Assembly: GCA_965216785.1 (NCBI GenBank)
Contig: OZ244197.1
Span: 1,088,001 to 1,152,000 of the forward strand
Length of the DNA stretch: 64,000 nucleotides
Direction of reading: 5' to 3'
Source: Thermodesulfobacteriota bacterium
GTDB lineage: Bacteria > Desulfobacterota_D > UBA1144 > Nemesobacterales > UBA2774
A program made the position numbers and the translations under genes. How positions within the stretch are numbered: position 1 is the stretch's first letter; the number at the start of each line of letters is the position of its first letter. The notes beneath the pieces were generated by a model. That model worked only from the letters and a program-made list of their open reading frames with translations. It ran no database searches and was not told where the DNA came from. Below, in pieces: positions 1,241 through 64,000 of this stretch.

Positions 1241-1914
1241 AAATTTTAACTTATATTACGATTGCAATTTTAATATCGTTTTCAAGCGTCCACTCCTCCG
1301 TTGCAGAGGAAATCGAAGCTGTGGTGGATAAGATCCAAAATAAATACGAGGAGATCACGGATTTCCATGCCAAGTTTACTCAGGAAGCCGCTGTGAAGGC
1401 GCTTGATAAGGTGCAGAAATCAGAGGGCGAAGTGTGGTTCAAGAAGCCCGGGAAAATGAGATGGAACTACTATACGCCAGAGAAAGATGAAATAGTCTCG
1501 GACGGTAGAACTTTATGGTTCTACGACGTTGCCGAGAAGCAGGTAATCGAGTCTCCGCTCGCTCAGGTCTCCGACACTCAAAATACCACTTCTCTTCTTT
1601 CAGGGCTCGGGAATATTAAAGAGGTCTTTAACGCGAGCTTTGCGGATGCGGCGGAGCTCAGCAGTAACGGCAACTATATGATAGAGCTAAAACCTAAAAG
1701 CGAAGAGGAGCAGTATAATAAGGCCATAGTAGCATTTGATCAAAACACTATGGTTATAAAATCTATATACCTCTACGACCCGTTTGGAAATTTAACCACT
1801 ATCTCCCTGACAGATATCAAGATTGACAACGGGGTTCAGGACTCACTTTTCAGCTTCACAGTTCCAAGCGGCGTTGAGGTAGTCAGGCCGCCTTCGTCCG
1901 TCAGCCCCCAGTAA
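1237..1914 (+). CDS. lolA: Outer-membrane lipoprotein carrier LolA
   Basis: Signal peptide; AKFTQ and KKPGKMRWNY..P..IVSDG.TLW motifs; canonical position after ftsK. Confidence 0.9.
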   Translation: MKILTYITIAILISFSSVHSSVAEEIEAVVDKIQNKYEEITDFHAKFTQEAAVKALDKVQKSEGEVWFKKPGKMRWNYYTPEKDEIVSDGRTLWFYDVAEKQVIESPLAQVSDTQNTTSLLSGLGNIKEVFNASFADAAELSSNGNYMIELKPKSEEEQYNKAIVAFDQNTMVIKSIYLYDPFGNLTTISLTDIKIDNGVQDSLFSFTVPSGVEVVRPPSSVSPQ

Positions 1915-1954
1915 AGTACAAGATGTCCGCAGCAATACAAGGAGGGAAGTCTCA

Positions 1955-2287
1955 ATGAAATATTTCTCTTTAAGCTTAATATCAATATTGCTGGTTTCAG
2001 TAGTAATTCTTGATATTTGTTATGCAAATCCCGAGAATAGCTTTACAGAGACCGAGCTTCAGGAGCGCTTCGCAAGCTCAGTACAGTCTATGCCGGAGGT
2101 AATTCAGGCCTCCTGGCAGTCTAAGCTCGATCTATGGGTATACGCGGACGGCGTAAGTAAAGAAGGCGCGCAGGAGCTTGCCCAAAAGGTCGTAATGCTT
2201 TCTCAAACAGAGTACGGGCAGGGACTCTGCGTGCATGTTCATAACGGGAACTACGAGCCCATTGCCAATAAATGCTCATCCCCTTGA
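1955..2287 (+). CDS. Small secreted hypothetical protein
   Basis: GGAGG RBS, N-terminal hydrophobic signal, two C-terminal Cys. Confidence 0.65.
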   Translation: MKYFSLSLISILLVSVVILDICYANPENSFTETELQERFASSVQSMPEVIQASWQSKLDLWVYADGVSKEGAQELAQKVVMLSQTEYGQGLCVHVHNGNYEPIANKCSSP

Positions 2288-2404
2288 ACGTGACTTCCCC
2301 TCAAACTTTCCAACTAGTCAGAAATACTGTAGATATAAGTTTTAAGTGATATTTAAACTGCGGATATATAAAGCTATGTTTTTGAATGTGGATGAAGGTT
2401 TTGG

Positions 2405-3634
2405 CTACCTGTCTATCTCGCCGAGAACGATGTCGAGGCTTCCGATAGCGGCAATCACGTCCGCTACCAGGCTTCCCTGAACCATCTGCGACAGAGCCTG
2501 CATGTTTACGAATGAAGGCCCCCGCACGCGCATCCTGTAGGGTTTTCCGGTGCCGTCACTGACCAGATAGTAGGAAAGCTCACCTTTAGGGTTTTCGACC
2601 GCGTGCTGCACCTCACCCGCAGGGGGTTTGAATCCCTCGTATACAATAACGAAGTGCCTGATCAAAGACTCCATTTTTGTATAGGTAAGCTCTTTTTCCG
2701 GGAGCACTATGTCGGGAAGATCGGCAATATAGGGGCCGTCGGGAAGGTTTGCTAAGGCCTGTTCGATTATCTTAAGGCTCTGGTGCATTTCCTCGAGTCT
2801 GCAGAGGTAACGAGCGTATGCGTCCCCTTCGTTTGCCACTGGTACCTCGAAGTCGTAGTTCTCATACCCAAGATACGGCATCGCCTTCCTTACGTCATAG
2901 GGAACGCCGCTTCCTCTGAGCGCGGGTCCTGTGAGTCCGAGACTTACCGCGTCTTCAGCGCTAATAACAGCGACATCCCTGGTGCGCTCTATCCATATCT
3001 TGTTCCTCGTCAGAAGCTTGTCCACCTCTGTTAAAGTCTCGGGGAATACTTTGAGGAAATTTCCGACTACTTCTTCAAAATTTTCCGGCAGGTCGAGCGG
3101 CAGCCCTCCTACCCTGGGATAAGAAGTCGTAAGCCTCGCTCCGCATACGGTTTCCAGTATGTCGTAAATCCTCTCTCTTTCTTTAAAACAGTAGAGAAAA
3201 GCGCTCATAGCGCCGAGGTCAAGAGCGTTTGTACCTATTCCTACTAGGTGTGATTCAATGCGCCCGAGCTCAAACAGTATTACTTCAGCGAATTTCGCGC
3301 GCTCGGGGATTTCGTCCTCTATACCAAGTAGCTTCTCAACGCTCAGAATGTATCCGATGTTATTGCAAATAGAGGCCAGGTAATCCATCCTGTCGGTATA
3401 GGGGATGCACTGCTGGTACGTAATGTGCTCACAAAGCTTCTCAATGCCCCGGTGGAGGTACCCGATGTAGGGCACTGCTTTTACCACCACCTCGCCGTCC
3501 AGATGAAGCACGACCCTGAGCACGCCGTGTGTAGCCGGGTGCTGCGGGCCCATGTTGAGCATCATGGTCTCCGTGCGCTCGCCTGTTTCAGGATTATGGG
3601 TTGCTTCAGCGGATATAAATTCGACTCTTTCCAT
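2405..3634 (-). CDS. nuoD: NADH-quinone oxidoreductase subunit D
   Basis: NMGPQHPATHGVLR, GYLHRGIEK, C-terminal DIVLGEIDR. Confidence 0.97.
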   Translation of the reverse strand: MERVEFISAEATHNPETGERTETMMLNMGPQHPATHGVLRVVLHLDGEVVVKAVPYIGYLHRGIEKLCEHITYQQCIPYTDRMDYLASICNNIGYILSVEKLLGIEDEIPERAKFAEVILFELGRIESHLVGIGTNALDLGAMSAFLYCFKERERIYDILETVCGARLTTSYPRVGGLPLDLPENFEEVVGNFLKVFPETLTEVDKLLTRNKIWIERTRDVAVISAEDAVSLGLTGPALRGSGVPYDVRKAMPYLGYENYDFEVPVANEGDAYARYLCRLEEMHQSLKIIEQALANLPDGPYIADLPDIVLPEKELTYTKMESLIRHFVIVYEGFKPPAGEVQHAVENPKGELSYYLVSDGTGKPYRMRVRGPSFVNMQALSQMVQGSLVADVIAAIGSLDIVLGEIDR

Positions 3635-51586: not shown

Positions 51587-52747
51587 ATGAAAATGCCTAA
51601 AGAAGGAATTCCCGGAGTCTATCACATAACTTACGGCGGCGGTTTTAAGGCCAAGCTCGGAGATTATTTAACGGAAGACGGGCACCTTGCCTGCTTTGAC
51701 ACTAAAGCCGAAGCAATAAGAGCAGTCCGAATGAGGCAGACTCATAATTTTGATTCCGAGGACTATGCTGTCGTTAGGGAAGGTAGTGGGTTCGCGGTAA
51801 GAAAGATTCATACCGTAAATGATCCGATTGCAGACGATATCGATACTTTGAAGGATCTTGATAGCGTGGTTCTATCCGATCAGGGTAAAACCGTAATCGC
51901 CTCTGTCATCGCTGACACTGGTGAAGTGAAGAATTTTCTCCCGCTTCCCAAATGGAAACAAGCCCGTGAAATAAATAGCGTAGAGGAAGTATGGGAGAGG
52001 CTTGAGGATATGCATGAAGAGCTCTCACACCGAGGGGACCACCGGGCCGTGTTCCCATGCAGCTACATTGCGACTACAAAGAAGGCGAGCGTCGTAATAG
52101 AATCGATCCGAAATAAAAATCACCCGGATCACCGAAAATTCAGAGAGCTCGATGACAACCTTATCGAAAATATAGTGATAGAGTTTGCAAAATTCTACTT
52201 TGAAGCTTTTGATAATTATGAAAGTGGGGAACGCTCAAAGGTGCCGCCCGTGTGGAGAGTTAATTTTGACGAAGCCAAGGCTCAGACTACTAGCGTGGTA
52301 GAGGATATGCTGCTTGGTTATAACGCTCATATGAGCTATGACCTTAGTATTATCCTCGCTAAAAAGCTTCCGGACGGAAAACCGCTTTATGACCCGGAGG
52401 ACTCAAAACAGGTAAATACTTTTAATGCGTTCAATCGTATATTAATAGAAGAGACGGATACGATAATAGGTTATGTAACGGAAATTGATGACAGGCTTGG
52501 AGGCAGATCGACCGAGGTAATAACATCGGGAAAGGCTATCGGCGTAAAGCTCCTTGGAGAAGGGGGGCTTGAGGATATGCTCCTAAAGCTCTTCTCAAAG
52601 GCGCGGGAGGAAGCCGAAGAAAACAGCAAAGCGCTTATGGAAGGCCGGATTACCCAGGAAGAGTTTGCAGAGAAAATCACTAAACGCGCCAGGGCAATTG
52701 GGCGGATGCTGCCCAATAGCGGCCGTATATTCGATAAAGAGAGCTAG
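51587..52747 (+). CDS. DUF5995-like protein with an extra N-terminal region
   Basis: D.RAVF..SY..TT, FA..YF.A, P.VW...F, LLG.NAH..YDL pattern. Confidence 0.6.
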   Translation: MKMPKEGIPGVYHITYGGGFKAKLGDYLTEDGHLACFDTKAEAIRAVRMRQTHNFDSEDYAVVREGSGFAVRKIHTVNDPIADDIDTLKDLDSVVLSDQGKTVIASVIADTGEVKNFLPLPKWKQAREINSVEEVWERLEDMHEELSHRGDHRAVFPCSYIATTKKASVVIESIRNKNHPDHRKFRELDDNLIENIVIEFAKFYFEAFDNYESGERSKVPPVWRVNFDEAKAQTTSVVEDMLLGYNAHMSYDLSIILAKKLPDGKPLYDPEDSKQVNTFNAFNRILIEETDTIIGYVTEIDDRLGGRSTEVITSGKAIGVKLLGEGGLEDMLLKLFSKAREEAEENSKALMEGRITQEEFAEKITKRARAIGRMLPNSGRIFDKES

Positions 52748-52769
52748 TTATAGATCACGAGAGCAAAAT

Positions 52770-54566
52770 ATGAATGCGGACAGCGAAAACTATTTAATTC
52801 CCATTGTGCTAGGCGTGTTGGCGGATAACGGCGTCGATGTCAACGATCAGATATTAGAGAAATTAATCACACCCCAGCTCGTTAAAATTAAAAATACATT
52901 TCCGAGCTCCCCGTTTTTCGTTATATCTCCCCTGGCTAATGATAAGGAGAGTCTGATAGCGCGTCTTGCCATAGACCGCTTGGATGCAGACATTGCAACA
53001 GCTTCTAAAGAGCCTGATGATAAACAGATCGAGATTTTTAAAATGGAACTTCAGAAAGGCGGTTACGCCCAATCTGATATTAAGAGGATAGGGCTGGCAA
53101 ATGAAGCGTCTAAAGGAAATAATCAAGTACTCAGTCCTTCAAAACTCACGGCCTCTCAATCTCAGATACTCATCGTGCTTAAAAACGGAGTAAAGGACAA
53201 AGCGCAGAGTGAAGTTGAAAGTGCCTTGGAGCTTAGAAATGAAGGGCGGTTCCACGAAATGTATTCCGGACGGGACAAAGATCAAAACACTTTAGATGCG
53301 CCGGATCTCGGACTCACTATCACGATCAACCCGGCGACATTTGATATTAGCACACAGATAACCCCGGTACAGGACGAGGCGCCGGAATCTCAAGAGCTGA
53401 AAAAAATAAATACGACATTTACCGAGAAGCTGTCTTTTGCTTTTAATAGGCATATTGAGCGCGTGACCGGGGTATTTGATAGATTCTATACCTCTTACAT
53501 CGAAATTCCGGATGACGGTGATAAGGACAGGCTTGCCAGATCGCCGTTTGTTGAAATCGCCGAGAAAATAGACGGCTATAATAAAGATGTTGCCGGTTTT
53601 ATAGAATCCAAAGGTGTCGAGACGGCACAACAATCCAAGGATTATTTACTTTCAGACGAGCGGGATAATCCAATTATATCGGAAGATCCCACCGTAGAGA
53701 AAATTATAGCTCCTTACAGCGGGGCCGATGTGCTTTCTCAGTTCTATCAAAAGAAAACCAACACTTATATAAACTGGATTTATATTCTTTTTTTCGCGGC
53801 TGTACTCCTATACGGAATTATCGATTTAAACTACTATCTGGTGCTGTGCTATATAGCCCTGATACCTGCGATCGCGTTTCTTGTGTACCGCTCTAAGGCT
53901 GAGAAAATCGAGGACAGATTCCTTGATTACAGGGCGCTTGCCGAGGGACTCAGGGTTATGGTGTTCTGGAGGATTGCCGGCATTGATGAGAGGGTCTCCG
54001 ACAACTATTTGAGTAAATACGCGGGCTTGGTTTCTTGGATAAGCCGCGCTATTAAGAATGTAGAGGTTGTCGGCCTTACAAATGGAGCAGGCCGTATAGA
54101 GAACAAAAAAGAGCGCGTAGAGATTACGAATAAACTGTGGATCGAATCACAGCTTGAGTACTATAGAAGGAAAAGAAATCCGCTCTATATGCGCTCTCTC
54201 GATCTGGGCAACCTGGCGCTTGTATCGTTCGTTCTCACACTCTTATTCGCGCTTTTGTTCGGCATATACCTTCTTTTTGCAGGTTTAGGCAACGACGGGG
54301 CGATAACAAGGTTTGAGGTTATGATAGGCGCTGCCGCCGCGATCGGTGTAGCCGCTCAGGCGTATAAGAGTAAAAAGGCGTATGACGAGCTTGAAAGACG
54401 CTATACTCTGACTCAGCATATATATATGTCCGCAAGTAAAAAGCTTAAGACGAACGCAGGCTCTCCGGACAGTATCCTCATTGCGGTAGGTAAAGAGGCG
54501 CTCCTTGAGAATAGCGACTGGCTCTGGACCCATAGGAATCTGCCGATCGAGCTGCCAAAGGGGTAG
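52770..54566 (+). CDS. Degenerate SLOG-like domain plus two 2TM SLATT-like (DUF4231-like) modules
   Basis: IPIVLGV, VISPLA, SQILIV align with the paralog downstream; AD.LS..YQ, FLDYRALAEGLR, WI.SQ..YY, E..DW; four hydrophobic segments. Confidence 0.65.
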   Translation: MNADSENYLIPIVLGVLADNGVDVNDQILEKLITPQLVKIKNTFPSSPFFVISPLANDKESLIARLAIDRLDADIATASKEPDDKQIEIFKMELQKGGYAQSDIKRIGLANEASKGNNQVLSPSKLTASQSQILIVLKNGVKDKAQSEVESALELRNEGRFHEMYSGRDKDQNTLDAPDLGLTITINPATFDISTQITPVQDEAPESQELKKINTTFTEKLSFAFNRHIERVTGVFDRFYTSYIEIPDDGDKDRLARSPFVEIAEKIDGYNKDVAGFIESKGVETAQQSKDYLLSDERDNPIISEDPTVEKIIAPYSGADVLSQFYQKKTNTYINWIYILFFAAVLLYGIIDLNYYLVLCYIALIPAIAFLVYRSKAEKIEDRFLDYRALAEGLRVMVFWRIAGIDERVSDNYLSKYAGLVSWISRAIKNVEVVGLTNGAGRIENKKERVEITNKLWIESQLEYYRRKRNPLYMRSLDLGNLALVSFVLTLLFALLFGIYLLFAGLGNDGAITRFEVMIGAAAAIGVAAQAYKSKKAYDELERRYTLTQHIYMSASKKLKTNAGSPDSILIAVGKEALLENSDWLWTHRNLPIELPKG

Positions 54567-54593
54567 GTAGAGAAAGAAAGGATTGAGTATTCA

Positions 54594-56387
54594 ATGAGTA
54601 AACAAATAAAAACGCCTCCGAAAGTTGCGCTTACGCTAAGAGTCGGCGTGACAGGTCACCGACCTCAAGGACTCGAAAGTTCGGACCTCCTATCACTCCG
54701 CTCAAAGCTGGATCATGTCCTTAGTGAGTTAAAACGAATTTTGCATGAGATCAATAATACTCCTAGCATGTACACGCCAGGGGATCCGCTGCTTAGAATT
54801 ATATCTCCACTAGCAGAAGGCGCCGATATGCTGGTCGCCGAGACTGCGCTGGAGAGCGGGTTTGAGCTGCAGTGCGCAATTCCCTTTGAAAGAGAAGAAT
54901 ATCAGAAGGATTTTCACAGTCCGGATTCGATACGCATGTACAGGGATATGCTGGAACGAGCAACGGCGGTTTTCGAGCTTAACGGCTCGCGCCGCACAAA
55001 GGCGCTTGAGAATGAGTCCTACCAGGCGGTGGGAAGGATGGTGCTCAACCAAAGCGATGTAATTATAGCCGTATGGGACGGAAAAGAGGCCAGGGGAAAA
55101 GGCGGGACCGGGCAGATCGTCAAAGAGGCAACGCAGCTTGAGATTCCCGTCATCTGGATAGATACGGCGCCTGAGCATGAGATACGCGTCCTTACGGGGA
55201 ATGAATACGGAACGAGTGAGGGAGAAGACCTGGATGGTCTCGACAGGAAGTTAAAACAACTGCTGGCGCCTAATAGCCTGAATGATGTTGAGATTAGAAA
55301 CGCTTATTTTGAAGAAACTCAGCCCCAAAGGTCTTGGGGGGTCATATTCGAGGTTTTTTGTGATTTCTTTTCAGGTGATAAGATAGACGCAAGCGGGGTA
55401 CATGTAAAAAACTTTGAGAAAAAGACGAGAGAAGAATGGCGGCACTCAAATGGCTATTCCGATGAGAATTCTCAGTCCGCTGAATTCCTCAATAATATGG
55501 AAGAGCAGGTGGACGAGAAACTTCTCCTTCATTACAGCTGGGCGGATAATCTGGCGAATTATTACTCAAACGTCTACAGGAGCTCTTTTGTCGGCAACTA
55601 TTTGTTGGCGGGGCTAGCCGTATTATTCGCACTATTAGCCGTAACTGTTCCCTCCTATGAAAAAGTATGGATTACAATAGAGCTGCTTATTATCGTATCG
55701 ATACTGGCTGTAACAAGAATCGGGAACCAAAGGAAATGGCACGAAAGGTGGATTGACTACAGGTTGTTATCAGAGGAGATAAGGCAGCTCAGGTTCCTGG
55801 CCCCGCTTGGATTAACGACCCCGGCGTTCAGGGTTCCCGCACACGATACTCACGGTGATCCCAGGAATACCTGGGTGAATTGGCATTTCAGAGCTATAGT
55901 GAGAAATCTGGGGATAATAACGGCAAGAATTAATAAGGAGTATCTGGAGTCCTACAGATCACTACTATCCGGGCGTGAAGTTAAGGGACAGATAGGATAC
56001 CACGATAAGAACTATCCGCGTTTCCATGAAATTCATAAAAGGCTCCATTACCTGGGTAATGCATTATTTGTCTTAACCTTCTTTGCAGTGCTTTTACATT
56101 TTTTGTTTTCCTCGGAGTGGCTTACTCTTTGCGCCGCGGTGTTTCCGGCCTTTGGAGCCGCGTTCTACGGGATCAGGACTCAGGGGGAGTTTGAGCAGAT
56201 TGCCAAGCGGTCCCGGGCAATGAGCGCTAAGCTAAAAGATATAAAGGAAGAGCTCGATAGTCCCAGCTTTACTCCGTCATATGGTGATATGTCTTTAATA
56301 GCAGAAAATACTGCAGAGATTATATCTTCGGAAACTCTTGATTGGAGAATTGTATTTCAGTCGAAAAGGTTGGTGTTGCCCGTATAA
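54594..56387 (+). CDS. SLOG (Smf/DprA-LOG) domain plus two 2TM SLATT-like modules
   Basis: VGVTGHR, ISPLAEGAD, IAVWDG...GKGGT, PVIWI; AD.LA..Y, W.DYRLLSE..R, Q..YH, E..DW; four TMs. Confidence 0.78.
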   Translation: MSKQIKTPPKVALTLRVGVTGHRPQGLESSDLLSLRSKLDHVLSELKRILHEINNTPSMYTPGDPLLRIISPLAEGADMLVAETALESGFELQCAIPFEREEYQKDFHSPDSIRMYRDMLERATAVFELNGSRRTKALENESYQAVGRMVLNQSDVIIAVWDGKEARGKGGTGQIVKEATQLEIPVIWIDTAPEHEIRVLTGNEYGTSEGEDLDGLDRKLKQLLAPNSLNDVEIRNAYFEETQPQRSWGVIFEVFCDFFSGDKIDASGVHVKNFEKKTREEWRHSNGYSDENSQSAEFLNNMEEQVDEKLLLHYSWADNLANYYSNVYRSSFVGNYLLAGLAVLFALLAVTVPSYEKVWITIELLIIVSILAVTRIGNQRKWHERWIDYRLLSEEIRQLRFLAPLGLTTPAFRVPAHDTHGDPRNTWVNWHFRAIVRNLGIITARINKEYLESYRSLLSGREVKGQIGYHDKNYPRFHEIHKRLHYLGNALFVLTFFAVLLHFLFSSEWLTLCAAVFPAFGAAFYGIRTQGEFEQIAKRSRAMSAKLKDIKEELDSPSFTPSYGDMSLIAENTAEIISSETLDWRIVFQSKRLVLPV

Positions 56388-56429
56388 TCAATCGCTGATA
56401 TAATCCTGATTTAGTTATTGTTTAGGTAG

Positions 56430-57743
56430 ATGGGAACAAAAATGGCACACGACGTATTCATAAGTCACTCGGGAAAAGATAAGACTGTTGCAGACGCCGT
56501 CTGCGCGACGTTGGAAAGAGGCGGTACCCGGTGCTGGATTGCGCCTAGGGACATAGTGCCCGGCACACAGTGGGGCGAGGCCATTATCGACGCCATAAGT
56601 CACTGTAAGGTGATGGTGCTCGTTTTTTCCTCTAACGCAAACGAATCGCAGCAAATTGTTCGTGAGGTCGAAAGGGCAGTCAATAAAGGCATACCCGTTA
56701 TACCCTTTCGGGTCGAAGACGTAGACCCGAATAAGTCGCTTGAATACTACATCAGCGCCCCTCACTGGCTCGATGCACTGACACCCCCGCTTGAAAAACA
56801 CATTGAGCAGCTTAACTCAACTATTAAGCTTCTCCTTTCCAAGCAGGAAGCGGCGGCTGGACCAACTGAGACCATACGGAGCGAGCCTGAACCCACTCAA
56901 ACTGAAACCGATATTCGTAGTGATAAAATCGAGACCATACGTGAACCATATCAGGATAAAGGAGGGCGTAAACAAGGTTTTAATCCAAAGTTAATTGGAG
57001 GCGGTATTGCTGTGTTGCTGCTCATCATTATAGGGTTTTTAGTGTTCTCTGGTGATGAAGGCGATAATTTCGGCACGAATGACGATGTAATAACTACTGA
57101 ACATGATACTTTTACAGATGACGGCAAGATGTGGGGAGCGCTTGCTCTCACCCCTAGCGGCGGATGGGGATTCGCGACGAATCAGCCCTCAAAGCGTGCG
57201 GCTGAGCAAGAAGCCATGGTAAAGTGCAGCAGTCAGAACCCTGACTGTGAGCTGAAGATATCATTTGATAACTGCATGGTCTACGCAAGGGCCGCGGACA
57301 GGACTACGGCCTGGGGGACTCATGAAAATATCGATACGGCAAGGGAGGCGGCTGTGAGTAAGTGTCACGAGTTCACTGCCGACACGTGCGGCTCGCACGT
57401 CGAGCTCTGTGCGGATGGGAGCGTGAAGAGGGTAAACGTATGGGGAGCAATCGCTACCGCTGACGAAGGTAAGCACGGAGAGTCTTGGAATTATCCCACC
57501 AGGGCGGAAGCAGAAGCTGCGGCCTTAGAGGAGTGCCAAAAAGAAGGACCCAACTGTTTGCTCAGAACGTCTTTTACCAATTGTGCCGCTGTAGCCAGGG
57601 GGGATGACGGCGCTCTAGGATGGGCCAATTACAATTACATGGACGATGCCGTAAACGCTGCCTATAAAGAATGTGAAAAGCGGAGTAAGGAAGAATGCCG
57701 CCTACTCATAAAGATCTGCGCCAACGGCAAAGAAGACAACTAA
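56430..57743 (+). CDS. TIR domain, single TM, and two DUF4189-like extracytoplasmic repeats
   Basis: DVFISHS..D, CWIAPRDI.PG, I..AI, S..ANES....REV (catalytic Glu), IPFR, WLDA; TM LIGGGIAVLLLIIIGFLVF; two 103-aa six-Cys repeats starting WGA(L/I)A. Confidence 0.85.
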   Translation: MGTKMAHDVFISHSGKDKTVADAVCATLERGGTRCWIAPRDIVPGTQWGEAIIDAISHCKVMVLVFSSNANESQQIVREVERAVNKGIPVIPFRVEDVDPNKSLEYYISAPHWLDALTPPLEKHIEQLNSTIKLLLSKQEAAAGPTETIRSEPEPTQTETDIRSDKIETIREPYQDKGGRKQGFNPKLIGGGIAVLLLIIIGFLVFSGDEGDNFGTNDDVITTEHDTFTDDGKMWGALALTPSGGWGFATNQPSKRAAEQEAMVKCSSQNPDCELKISFDNCMVYARAADRTTAWGTHENIDTAREAAVSKCHEFTADTCGSHVELCADGSVKRVNVWGAIATADEGKHGESWNYPTRAEAEAAALEECQKEGPNCLLRTSFTNCAAVARGDDGALGWANYNYMDDAVNAAYKECEKRSKEECRLLIKICANGKEDN

Positions 57744-61092: not shown

Positions 61093-61701
61093 TTGGCTAA
61101 TACTAAAGGGACAGTATCGTATATGAACGGCAGACCAAAAGTGCTTTTTTCATGGAGCGGAGGTAAAGACAGTGCACTTGCTCTATATGAAATTCTCAAT
61201 TCCGGGGCATATGAGATTGAATCATTGATCACAACCGTGACGGTTGATTACGGCAGGGTAAGCATGCACGGATTCAGGACCGAGCTTCTTCACACTCAAG
61301 CCGGCTCTTTGAACATTCCGCTTGAAGAGGTTTATATTTCAAAGGACGCTTCAAACGAGGAGTATGAGTACAGTCTGACGGATACGCTTTCAAAGTACCG
61401 TGAAGAGGGGGTTAACAAAGTGGTGTTCGGGGACATCTTTCTACAGGATATTAAAGAGTACCGGGAGGCCCTCTTATCCGGCATAGGAATGGAATGCGTG
61501 TTTCCTATCTGGAAGAGGGACAGCTCGTTACTCGCCCGGAACTTTATTGAAGAGGGGTTTCGTGCGGTTATCGTATGTGTGGATACAGAGCAGCTGGACG
61601 CTTCTTTTTCAGGCCGGGAGTTTGATGAGAGTTTTCTTTCGGACCTGCCCTCAGGAGTCGATCCGTGCGGAGAAAACGGGGAGTTCCATACTTTTGTTTA
61701 A
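61093..61701 (+). pseudogene. Diphthine-ammonia ligase (Dph6)-like PP-loop ATPase, 3'-truncated by an element insertion
   Basis: SWSGGKDS, RVSMHG, VFGDIFL, DPCGENGEFHTFV then an immediate stop; about 33 aa shorter than the homolog at 61837-62508; base composition shifts at the stop. Real start is probably ATG 61123. Confidence 0.8.
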
Positions 61702-61836
61702 GTAATGGTGTAACTCGCTAATTATACTGAACTATCTATTAAAAAATCATACCACATAATGATGAATTTAGCAAGCTGTTTTTTCAATCTTTAGGATATA
61801 ATATTTTAGATCATCATGACATGTCTTTGCTAGAGA

Positions 61837-62508
61837 TTAAGACGAGAAAATGTCACAGTAATAAAAACGTTCATCCCGTAAGACTATTTCGCCTAATCTG
61901 TGTTCGATTGGATTATTGAAGATCGGGCCATCGTAGGTGAAGGTATGAAATTCTCCGTTCTCTCCACAGGGATCAATTCCTGATGGAAGGTCATTCAAAA
62001 ACTGTTTATCGAATTCTCTTCCAACAAATTGCCCATCCAACTGGCTAGAATCAACACATACTATCACTGCTTTGAACCCAGTATCAATAAAGTTTTGAGC
62101 TAATTTAGCAGTATCTAATTTCCAAATTGGAAACAAACACTTCATCTCAATTTGTCCAAGAAGTGTTTCTCGATATTTCTTTATATCTTCTAGAAACAAA
62201 TCGCCAAATACCACCTGGCTAATACCGACCTCTTTAAATTTGTTTAGAACATCAATAAATCTATTTTCATATTCATCATTAGCAGCATTCTTCGAAATTA
62301 GAACCTTTTCAAGCGGAATATTCAAAGACTCCGCCTGTTGCTCGAGTAAATCAGTGCGTAAACCATGTATGCTGACTCTATCAAAATCACTCGTCACAGT
62401 AGTTATAAGAGATATAATTTCATATTTCCCGTTTTTTTGAATCTCATGTAGTGCTAAAGAGCTGTCCTTACCACCACTCCAGGAGAGTACTAAGGGCAAT
62501 TTTTTCAT
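61837..62508 (-). CDS. Full-length Dph6-like PP-loop ATPase carried by the element
   Basis: SWSGGKDS, RVSIHG, VFGDLFL, DPCGENGEFHTFTYDGPIF, FYYCD; AT-rich codons; 5 bp downstream of the recombinase stop. Confidence 0.9.
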   Translation of the reverse strand: MKKLPLVLSWSGGKDSSLALHEIQKNGKYEIISLITTVTSDFDRVSIHGLRTDLLEQQAESLNIPLEKVLISKNAANDEYENRFIDVLNKFKEVGISQVVFGDLFLEDIKKYRETLLGQIEMKCLFPIWKLDTAKLAQNFIDTGFKAVIVCVDSSQLDGQFVGREFDKQFLNDLPSGIDPCGENGEFHTFTYDGPIFNNPIEHRLGEIVLRDERFYYCDIFSS

Positions 62509-62513
62509 CTAAA

Positions 62514-64000
62514 TTAATCCTGTATATCTATATAATCTTCCAGATACAAAGCGCCCCCATGCCCATGTAGCTCGAGGTTTCTAAATTTATATCTCAGCTT
62601 TTTTATATATTTACTTTTCATGAGCTGTATGATTCCAGGTTCTACTTCATCGTACTCTACATATTTATCTTGTAGTGGATATACCCTTATCCATTCAAAA
62701 ATATTTTGTATTTCATGCCTTAGCTGCAATCTTAGCTTAGCAAGTTCTTGGTCATCTTTAGCAGATTCTAGAAAGTTATATGCTTCCTTTATATTGTCTT
62801 TTTGTTTTAAAAATCTGTTCCTTTGGTCAACTAAATCTTTTATTTCCTGTCCAAGGCTTTTGTTTTTGATAAGCAATTTTTGTTTAGCTGTTCGTTTTTC
62901 TGTAACTTCTTTGTCATATATTTTCTTATTCTCTTCGTCATCTGTAATACTGATTGTTTGTAGTAAATTTTTAATCTGAGAATCCAGATCATTTAGTATA
63001 AAATTGTTCTCTGATATTATTTGTTCTTTTTCTTTCTTAAGCTTTGTCGTTTCATCTTCATCTGGTAATAGTTTGTTAATATCCAGTTCATCAAAATTCT
63101 CAAAGAATATCCTCTCAAATTCATTGTAACGTACTGACTTAGCTGTACAAACCATGTCTCTTCTACTAACTTCTAAATCCGGTATTTTTCGACGGTTTAA
63201 TTTAGCTGCAATCTTTGCATCAATTTGTTTTTGATCTTTTTTTATGTCTATTGAAACTTTATTTTTTCGTCTTCTGCTATCACAAATAAGGTATTGAACT
63301 CCTTTATCCACAAACTGCATTGAGCTTCCACATATACCACATTTAACAACATGTGAAAACAAGTTATTCCCTTTATCCTTATTACCTCCTCCACCACCAT
63401 TGCCAGGGAATTTACTATTTTGTCGAATAAGCTCTTGTACCCTGTAAAATAAACCTTCTTCAATTACCTTTGGATAGTAATCTTTTATGGGGTCACCTTT
63501 CGCAACAGGTAATTCCCTTTCTTCCTCGTTACCGTTTTTGATGATCGTTTTAGTTTTCATTTCATGTGGCTGGTATTCTCCGATTAATTTCCTATTTTTA
63601 AGTATTTTGCTTATGTATGCATCGCGCCAACCGCCAGACTTGTTTCTAGAACTTTTAGGTGGTTTCCAAACGTCTGGATCAGCATTTAGTTCTTTTTCGA
63701 TCTTATAACTCCCTTTGCCTTCGAGTCTTTTTTGAAAAATTAATTCTATTGCTTTACATGCTTTCTCTATTGGAACAAATTCAGGTTTGTCAGCCGATAA
63801 TTTAAGCCAGAGAGGACATTTAGCACTATATATTCTTAGTTCTTTTTTACGTAATTTCTCCCTTTTTTCTTCTAATGCTTCTCTTATACGTTTTGATTTT
63901 TTTAAAGATTCATTGTGAGCTGCAGTCATTAAGTAAATACTATTAGTAAGTAGATTTGAATTCTTATTGATACTGCTTCTGTCGTATTCCTGATCATCTT
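62514..64000 (-). CDS. Large serine recombinase/integrase (catalytic N-terminus outside window)
   Basis: Frame is open to the window end (..DDQEYDRSS..IYLMTAAHNESLKKSKRI); P.WL, W....I.KILKNR..IG, DYYPKVI, NLFS..VKCGICG and C...R...C zinc ribbon, coiled-coil tail. Confidence 0.88.
   Translation of the reverse strand, partial: DDQEYDRSSINKNSNLLTNSIYLMTAAHNESLKKSKRIREALEEKREKLRKKELRIYSAKCPLWLKLSADKPEFVPIEKACKAIELIFQKRLEGKGSYKIEKELNADPDVWKPPKSSRNKSGGWRDAYISKILKNRKLIGEYQPHEMKTKTIIKNGNEEERELPVAKGDPIKDYYPKVIEEGLFYRVQELIRQNSKFPGNGGGGGNKDKGNNLFSHVVKCGICGSSMQFVDKGVQYLICDSRRRKNKVSIDIKKDQKQIDAKIAAKLNRRKIPDLEVSRRDMVCTAKSVRYNEFERIFFENFDELDINKLLPDEDETTKLKKEKEQIISENNFILNDLDSQIKNLLQTISITDDEENKKIYDKEVTEKRTAKQKLLIKNKSLGQEIKDLVDQRNRFLKQKDNIKEAYNFLESAKDDQELAKLRLQLRHEIQNIFEWIRVYPLQDKYVEYDEVEPGIIQLMKSKYIKKLRYKFRNLELHGHGGALYLEDYIDIQD

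Follow-up and report, generated by a model that had tools for sequence, protein, structure and literature searches.

The window, a 64,000-nt stretch of a Thermodesulfobacteriota genome (G000:C1:1088001-1152000; G000 is a one-contig genome of 3.12 Mb, 92% complete), contains the left end of a 67,548-bp island that lies inside a host DUF71/Dph6-like gene. Close relatives of its proteins carry the source labels Thermodesulfobacteriota or Candidatus Dadabacteria. The island carries an intact, foreign copy of the gene that it splits, directly behind a serine integrase. We propose that this second copy is a compensating spare that belongs to a dedicated integrase clade, and sequence comparison leads us to give this reading a probability of roughly 0.7. 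Both copies belong to the Pfam family PF01902. In the following, G stands for genomes, L for loci, and X for assembled runs (contigs). The features concerned are listed below.

61123..61701, plus strand: 5' portion of the DUF71/Dph6-like host gene (PF01902), with the likelier ATG start at 61123 and a possible upstream TTG start at 61093
61688..61697, plus strand: attL core, the 10-bp direct repeat ATACTTTTGT
61693-61694: predicted crossover dinucleotide TT, within the attL core
61698..64000, no strand assigned: left end of the island, which continues beyond the window to G000:C1:1217245
61708..61716, plus strand: element-side arm GTGTAACTC, the inverse of the far-end arm at G000:C1:1217219-1217227
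61837..62508, minus strand: full-length spare DUF71 gene, 223 amino acids, carrying the motifs SGGKDS and ENGEFH, in the opposite orientation to the host copy
62514..64000, minus strand: large serine recombinase, 612 amino acids, with its start 352 bases past the window at G000:C1:1152352
G000:C1:1217236-1217245, outside the window: attR, the second copy of the core
G000:C1:1217246-1217345, plus strand, outside the window and about 67.5 kb downstream: displaced 3' end of the host gene

The host open reading frame (ORF) ends in GENGEFHTFV, with the break inside the Phe codon that follows GEFHT. As a preliminary description of the window had noted, the DNA turns AT-rich at this point, and the guanine-cytosine (GC) content drops from 0.50 to 0.37 across position 61700 or so; the island as a whole has a GC content of 0.392, compared to 0.461 for the remainder. 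That description had also predicted that the missing 3' part of the gene would lie at the other end of the element, and it was recovered there. A tblastn search of the genome matched the host C-terminus at 1217232-1217339, and the rejoined halves can be read through as one frame of 224 codons that has a single stop. An assembly chimera near 61700, raised in the same description as a possible objection, was discounted, as one X4 contig covers 60000-64000 with no differences (X4 is possibly the source of this DNA) and the break recurs in L039, L048, and G024.

The empty site, for which a comparison had been recommended, was found in three runs. A 15,524-bp X5 contig matches 60000-61697 apart from 13 differences (record 1429-3126) and picks up again at the far junction (from record 3117), so that the two flanks overlap by exactly the 10-bp core. 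The X5 strain, which is 99% identical, has an uninterrupted gene and no island. The same joint is present in X6, from the same study as X5, and in X7, from another study. Relatives have the whole gene between ypfJ/SDF on one side and a 74-amino-acid gene and a methyltransferase gene on the other, which are the flanks of the island in G000; relatives with an equally short gene and no element, which would have spoken against an insertion, are therefore not what the synteny shows.

The length of the element, from 61698 in the window to G000:C1:1217245, follows from the 10-bp core common to both junctions. When the element ends are joined, as in an attP-type site, they form a perfect 9-bp inverted arm and are symmetric about the TT at 18 of 25 positions, compared to 12 of 25 for the joined host site. 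A short core, arms symmetric about the dinucleotide, and a precise empty site are the marks of a large-serine-recombinase element, and the island likely entered the host gene by serine-integrase recombination at the TT dinucleotide. In an AlphaFold model with a predicted local distance difference test score of 94, the cut falls within the strand at residues 187-193 and takes away the strands at 203-211 and 215-222 of the C-terminal domain. The 193-residue host stub is likely inactive, according to this model, because two strands and half of a third are lost.

The recombinase is one intact ORF with Resolvase, Recombinase, and Zn-ribbon domains. Together with the att-type sites at both ends, this confirmed the earlier assignment of the region to a serine-integrase element. 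The full-length divergent homolog described on the opposite strand was likewise found as reported, with its ATG 5 bp past the end of the recombinase ORF (62514). Over 191 amino acids it shares 66% identity with the host piece, and the DNA identity is 64%. The gap between integrase and spare is 5 bp in G000, 0 bp in L048, and approximately 70-105 bp in L037-L040. The spare is probably expressed, in G000 coupled to the integrase message. A scan for promoters and terminators gave results at chance level (17 vs 13.5 promoters and 1 vs 2.9 terminators).

Next, the recurrence of this arrangement was examined with an alignment of 23 close integrases as the query. This query returned 80 metagenome, 39 genome, and 3 viral loci, the last being distant relatives; with L036, there were 123 integrase loci. 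A scan of genome contigs with the single integrase protein gave nothing, whereas the alignment scan did give loci. Within 101 genomes of the order and 120 of the phylum, integrase matches were confined to G000 and G099, and in plasmid and phage collections the matches were distant and partial, none with 80% coverage. A DUF71 gene lies directly behind the integrase in 5 of the 123 loci (L037, L039, L040, L048, and L038, where it is ended by the contig border), and these five are among the closest integrase relatives, at 69-77% identity. The lack of a spare at many distant loci is weak evidence because little flank is present there. Five further integrase/DUF71 pairs were inferred indirectly from a common source and an identical exact contig size; they were labelled before the trees were made and are not confirmed neighbours.

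A truncated host gene faces the element in L039 and L048, a displaced 3' piece is present in L037, and both halves are found in G024. All of these breaks fall in the codon that follows GEFHT (G000, L039, L048, and G024, with right junctions in L037 and G024). At the level of assembled sequence, these junctions show that the site of the integrase clade lies in the conserved GEFHT-F codons of the DUF71 family and that the crossover leaves an early stop. The suggestion of a dedicated target-gene family was thus supported, both by the break at the same codon in several hosts and by the spare-bearing integrase subclade.

Phylogenetic analysis was used to place the spares. A quick tree of 145 rows put the five confirmed and five inferred spares in one 52-row clade, with a Shimodaira-Hasegawa-like approximate likelihood ratio test (SH-aLRT) value of 99, together with one host-locus copy from G012. 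A careful tree of 37 rows, from which G030 and G033 were dropped for their long branches, grouped the 10 spares and the G012 copy at 97/89, nested among host genes of genus g2. The partial spare of L038 was in no tree. A topology joining the window's spare to its own host gene was rejected by the approximately unbiased (AU) test (p = 2.7e-10), as was its placement inside the g1 host clade (p = 0.036). The first result bore out the claim that a whole xenologous gene had been brought in. L048 is the sister of G000 in the integrase tree (98) and again in the spare tree (100/98). These trees show a spare lineage that travels with the element and arose among genus-g2-like host genes.

The ratio of nonsynonymous to synonymous substitution rates was 0.080-0.150 among spares (6 of 10 pairs unsaturated) and 0.054-0.141 among hosts (7 of 10 pairs). 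The motifs SGGKDS, [MI]HG, and ENGE[FY]H are kept in all 51 spare-clade proteins. These data support the view that the spare is a whole xenologous gene, under purifying selection and carried by a dedicated integrase subclade. One candidate explanation for a detail of the spare was not supported: the window's spare has HTFT at the place where HTFV is found in most hosts, which could suggest self-avoidance by recoding. The spare clade has FV in 28, FT in 18, and FA in 5 of 51 proteins, and the others have FV in 49 and FT in 20 of 69.

A sister group of integrases offered a comparison with another target. The integrases without a DUF71 spare (G099, which is L117, and L042 and L041; 60-65% identity) form a nested clade with SH-aLRT 99. 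G099 has an intact DUF71 gene elsewhere in its genome, and its 26.1-kb element, the arms of which differ, splits a non-coding unit. The split unit consists of a conserved 24-nt stretch and a terminator-like hairpin. Its distance upstream of a divergent metallo-hydrolase gene is 201-204 nt. It is found in 10 of the 120 phylum genomes, 9 of the 10 belonging to g2. The G099 halves rejoin into the unit that is intact in G097, where the flanks are the same. Directly behind the integrase in G099 and L042 is a complete, diverged, inverted copy of the unit, in which the 24-nt stretch is 92-96% identical to the host units; the copy is convergent with the integrase and has a strong hairpin at its end. 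L041 has the same arm and sits in a TfoX_N gene, and no spare was seen between its integrase and the arm. To judge from these alignments, the spare changed with the target in two of the three sister-clade elements examined, G099 and L042.

The unit, of about 65 nt, has an invariant, unpaired 24-nt stretch with a CUCC motif, followed by a hairpin of variable sequence in which the pairing is mostly kept. Rfam has no family for it; the best match was sbrA at 18.4 bits against a gathering score of 45 bits. We regard it as a candidate small RNA. Its copies are located as follows.

G000:C1:999930-1000060 (L188), minus strand: ~65-nt non-coding unit
L179-L187: further loci of the unit
L042:2480-2620: the unit in L042

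The likely role of the DUF71 enzyme was considered from motifs and genome content. Neither copy is a true Dph6, which has EGGE/D-x-E and passes the TIGR03679 cut-off of 197 bits; here the motif is ENGEFH and the score is 105 bits. Both copies have the ENGE[FY]H signature of the DUF71-B12 subgroup, and the fold of the model matches PF0828/PH1257. In 2012, true Dph6 was set apart from this bacterial ENGE[FY]H subgroup, for which an ATP-dependent role in B12 salvage was predicted (PMC3541065, accessible text). As in that subgroup of COG2102/PF01902, our proteins have ENGE[FY]H instead of EGGE-x-E, a PP-loop SGGKD, and the PF0828 fold. Unlike most of its described members, the gene at this locus does not cluster with B12 transport genes or cbiB.

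The content of G000 fits B12 dependence. The genome has a B12-binding domain in a MetH-sized frame of 1,232 amino acids, three matches to methylmalonyl-CoA mutase, and a cobalamin riboswitch ahead of a TonB/BtuF/FecCD operon; this B12 uptake operon is approximately 365 kb from the DUF71 gene. MetE was not found in the 92%-complete genome. In L029, from another family, a DUF6580 gene adjoins the DUF71 gene.

The course of events under the compensating-spare reading would be as follows. The integrase clade would recombine at the GEFHT-F codons, where, as the junctions indicate, the crossover leaves an early stop. The cut is predicted to strip strands of the C-terminal domain, so that the host stub is likely inactive. 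The spare, by comparison, belongs to the travelling lineage, in which all family motifs are kept under purifying selection. Once expressed, it could supply the ATP-dependent activity predicted for B12 salvage to a host with B12-dependent enzymes. With the spare inverted, homologous recombination between it and the host halves may be unable to delete the island. Behind the integrase, the slot would hold a spare of whatever target the integrase has.

We consider it possible, at somewhat less than even odds, that the arrangement is a modular target-plus-spare cassette. Each retargeting would capture a full copy of the new target into the slot, which would be an enzyme gene for one subclade and the undescribed ~65-nt small-RNA-like unit for its sister. 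Such a cassette would land cost-free in conserved, functional DNA and at times leave its copy as a permanent host gene, for which G012 is a candidate. If true, the spares would mark obscure loci that the host cannot afford to lose.

Several results weigh against a compensating spare. The joint of the excised circle was not seen in contigs of the runs examined. G024, which is 90% complete in 140 contigs, has both gene halves, and neither a full copy nor an integrase was found in it; the spare could be dispensable, or the island could be missing from the assembly. L041 has no visible spare, as described above. The spares alone are weakly monophyletic (49/25) because the host-locus copy of G012 groups with them. 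This copy (L006, G012:C241:474-1148) is a DUF71 gene in the host position and could be a xenologous replacement or belong to the donor lineage. CbiB and CbiZ were not found in the 92%-complete G000. The neighbours of the host gene are ypfJ, an SDF transporter gene, and a methyltransferase gene, with no B12 genes, unlike most DUF71-B12 loci in the accessible text of PMC3541065; the salvage role remains a prediction here because of this lack of clustering. Lastly, 36 of the 101 order genomes and 5 of 32 other genomes of the family have no match to the gene. The preliminary description had held that the enzyme matters to the host, and the split G024 gene and the 36 genomes without a match did not bear this out.

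One alternative explanation is that the spare is ordinary beneficial cargo, captured once beside the attachment site by imprecise excision and retained because it is useful in itself, for example to hosts that lack or under-express the enzyme, while the host tolerates the loss of its gene. The patchy distribution of the gene (65 of 101 order genomes) and the split G024 gene with no spare found would fit this, and capture of site-adjacent DNA would also account for the non-coding copy in the sister clade. In addition, integrative and mobilizable elements with site-specific serine recombinases are said usually to disrupt dispensable genes, according to the accessible part of a review (PMC5704250). 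However, the DUF71 spare is absent from the three examined elements at other sites, two of which have a copy of the new target instead, and the spare is fixed in one slot across elements with saturated synonymous sites. We regard the cargo explanation as unlikely.

Another possible explanation is that the spare mainly serves the element, either by offering a new attB-like site for subsequent or tandem insertions or by acting as a terminator or a regulatory partner of the integrase transcript, with its enzyme activity incidental. The GEFHTF codons are present in the spare, and in the sister clade the copy, with its strong terminal hairpin, runs toward the integrase. Nevertheless, none of six loci had a split spare, purifying selection extends over the whole frame and not just about 50 bp, and the sister-clade copy keeps the unpaired 24-nt stretch, which a terminator does not need. 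This explanation is very improbable. A local duplication or assembly artefact, which could be suspected of a single assembly from a mixed sample, is refuted by the 64% DNA identity between the copies, the AU test result of 2.7e-10, the same layout at independent loci, and the exact empty site.

The compensating-spare reading can be compared with known systems. e14 and phage 21 insert near the 3' end of icd and make the gene complete again by means of a short 3' piece at the junction. The G000 island is also near the 3' end of a protein gene; in contrast, the host gene is left with a stop, and a whole second gene comes with the island.

The closest case is that of the SbCI-ccrDE and CI-ccrDE islands of staphylococci, which truncate rimL and carry a diverged homolog (70% nucleotide identity), with complementation suggested by the authors (PMC10581047). 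Both systems are serine-recombinase islands that truncate a protein gene and carry a diverged homolog, and complementation is suggested in both. The staphylococcal islands differ in their paired Ccr-type recombinases, staphylococcal cassette chromosome (SCC) backbone, target, and phylum, whereas here there is a single 612-amino-acid integrase with the spare directly behind it at 64% nucleotide identity. The accessible text of PMC10581047 gives no spare tree, selection test, or swap of spare with target. Membership in the SCC/CI-ccrDE group would entail a ccr complex and an rlmH or rimL site, and the island falls outside that group: G000 has one integrase of its type, and the target is PF01902.

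In actinobacteriophages such as Fionnbharth, the need for a spare in tRNA-dependent lysogeny was proven experimentally (PMC10865867). As described in the accessible text, that system shares with ours a core of about 10 bp, a target that is not rebuilt, and a complete spare near the integrase. It differs in its tyrosine integrases, phage carriers, and essential tRNA targets, where we have a serine integrase, a non-phage island, and either a patchily distributed enzyme gene or a small non-coding unit. The strategy itself is thus already in print, in the rimL islands and in tRNA-dependent lysogeny, and is less novel than the preliminary description implied.

Large serine recombinases that disrupt protein genes have been surveyed (PMC10083194) and share with ours the three domains, a conserved coding motif as attB, and a central dinucleotide. 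Eight supplementary files of that work contain no PF01902, diphthine, or ATP_bind_4, and its accessible text does not mention spare copies. An archaeal element targets a 'diphthamide biosynthesis protein', with no spare mentioned in the available text (PMC6563490), and the available part of a preprint on spoVK phages (10.1101/2021.11.22.469490) does not mention a phage-borne copy. In the literature searched, which left out most subscription papers, there was no report of a DUF71 target, of this integrase clade, or of a spare changing with its target.

As an example of a serine-integrase island that probably compensates with a whole gene, this one is clearly delimited: both junctions, a strain with the empty site, a tree, and a test for selection are available. 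In the sister clade, a new target goes with a new spare, a link relevant to how site-specific integrases reach new conserved sites. Selection in this lineage also appears, on indirect evidence, to act on the bacterial DUF71 enzyme, for which a role in B12 salvage is predicted. In addition, the comparison brought to light a conserved small non-coding unit without an Rfam family and supplied integrase/att pairs with defined sites.

The remainder of the island was surveyed for backbone and cargo genes. No relaxase, type IV secretion, or virion family was found among the element ORFs compared to Pfam (41 in one scan and 9 in another); three border-crossing ORFs and those under 90 amino acids were mostly unscanned, and several ORFs had no family. 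The backbone genes are listed below.

G000:C1:1163412-1164038: tyrosine-recombinase-family gene, 208 amino acids, also upstream of the integrase in L037, L038, L039, and L043
G000:C1:1214965-1217185: three right-end ORFs, namely a 270-amino-acid helix-turn-helix (HTH) protein, a 268-amino-acid DUF3102 protein, and an 84-amino-acid protein

All three right-end ORFs are present in G099, two in G024, and the 84-amino-acid ORF in L037. Two further copies of the 208-amino-acid gene (88% and 82% identical) lie in lower-GC regions of G000, at G000:C1:870938-871561 and 1289416-1290039, and these regions are probably other islands. The cargo of the island includes an Eco57I-type restriction-modification gene, TIR and IrrE proteins, RND efflux, P-type ATPases, and mer genes. 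About 48 kb of it, from L001:17145 to L004:5324, is metal-resistance cargo with two RND systems, several P-type ATPases, and MerR/MerT/MerB, along with phosphoketolase and acetate kinase.

A second, decayed copy of the host gene's 3' end lies 2.1 kb past the true one (G000:C1:1219337-1219458; L004:11337-11458), between a lytic polysaccharide monooxygenase/carbohydrate-binding module gene and an AlbA_2 gene. At this copy, X5 and X6 have 30 letters resembling the last codons of the gene in place of 1,748 bp. G003 has a 3' remnant approximately 2 kb beyond its intact gene. The 3' end of the DUF71 gene looks like a hotspot of cassette gain by another route.

Elsewhere in the window, 51587-57743 contains two long ORFs, presumably SLOG/SLATT-like by their appearance, followed by a TIR-like protein with repeated domains; the segment is partly common to G001. 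Among the other integrase loci, L037:6001-7762 has a split integrase frame (422 + 176 amino acids) beside an intact spare, and the integrase at L043:3644-4414 is ended at 256 amino acids near the contig border. Five genes lie between the spare and the left junction in L048 (1977-5855), including a QueC-like gene and a SMODS nucleotidyltransferase gene, and are likely a defence cluster resembling a cyclic-oligonucleotide-based antiphage signaling system (CBASS). A distant Bacillota integrase locus with the 270-amino-acid HTH backbone gene (L120:4191-6141) adjoins a 5'-truncated magnesium-chelatase (comM-like) gene, which is possibly an ancestral target.

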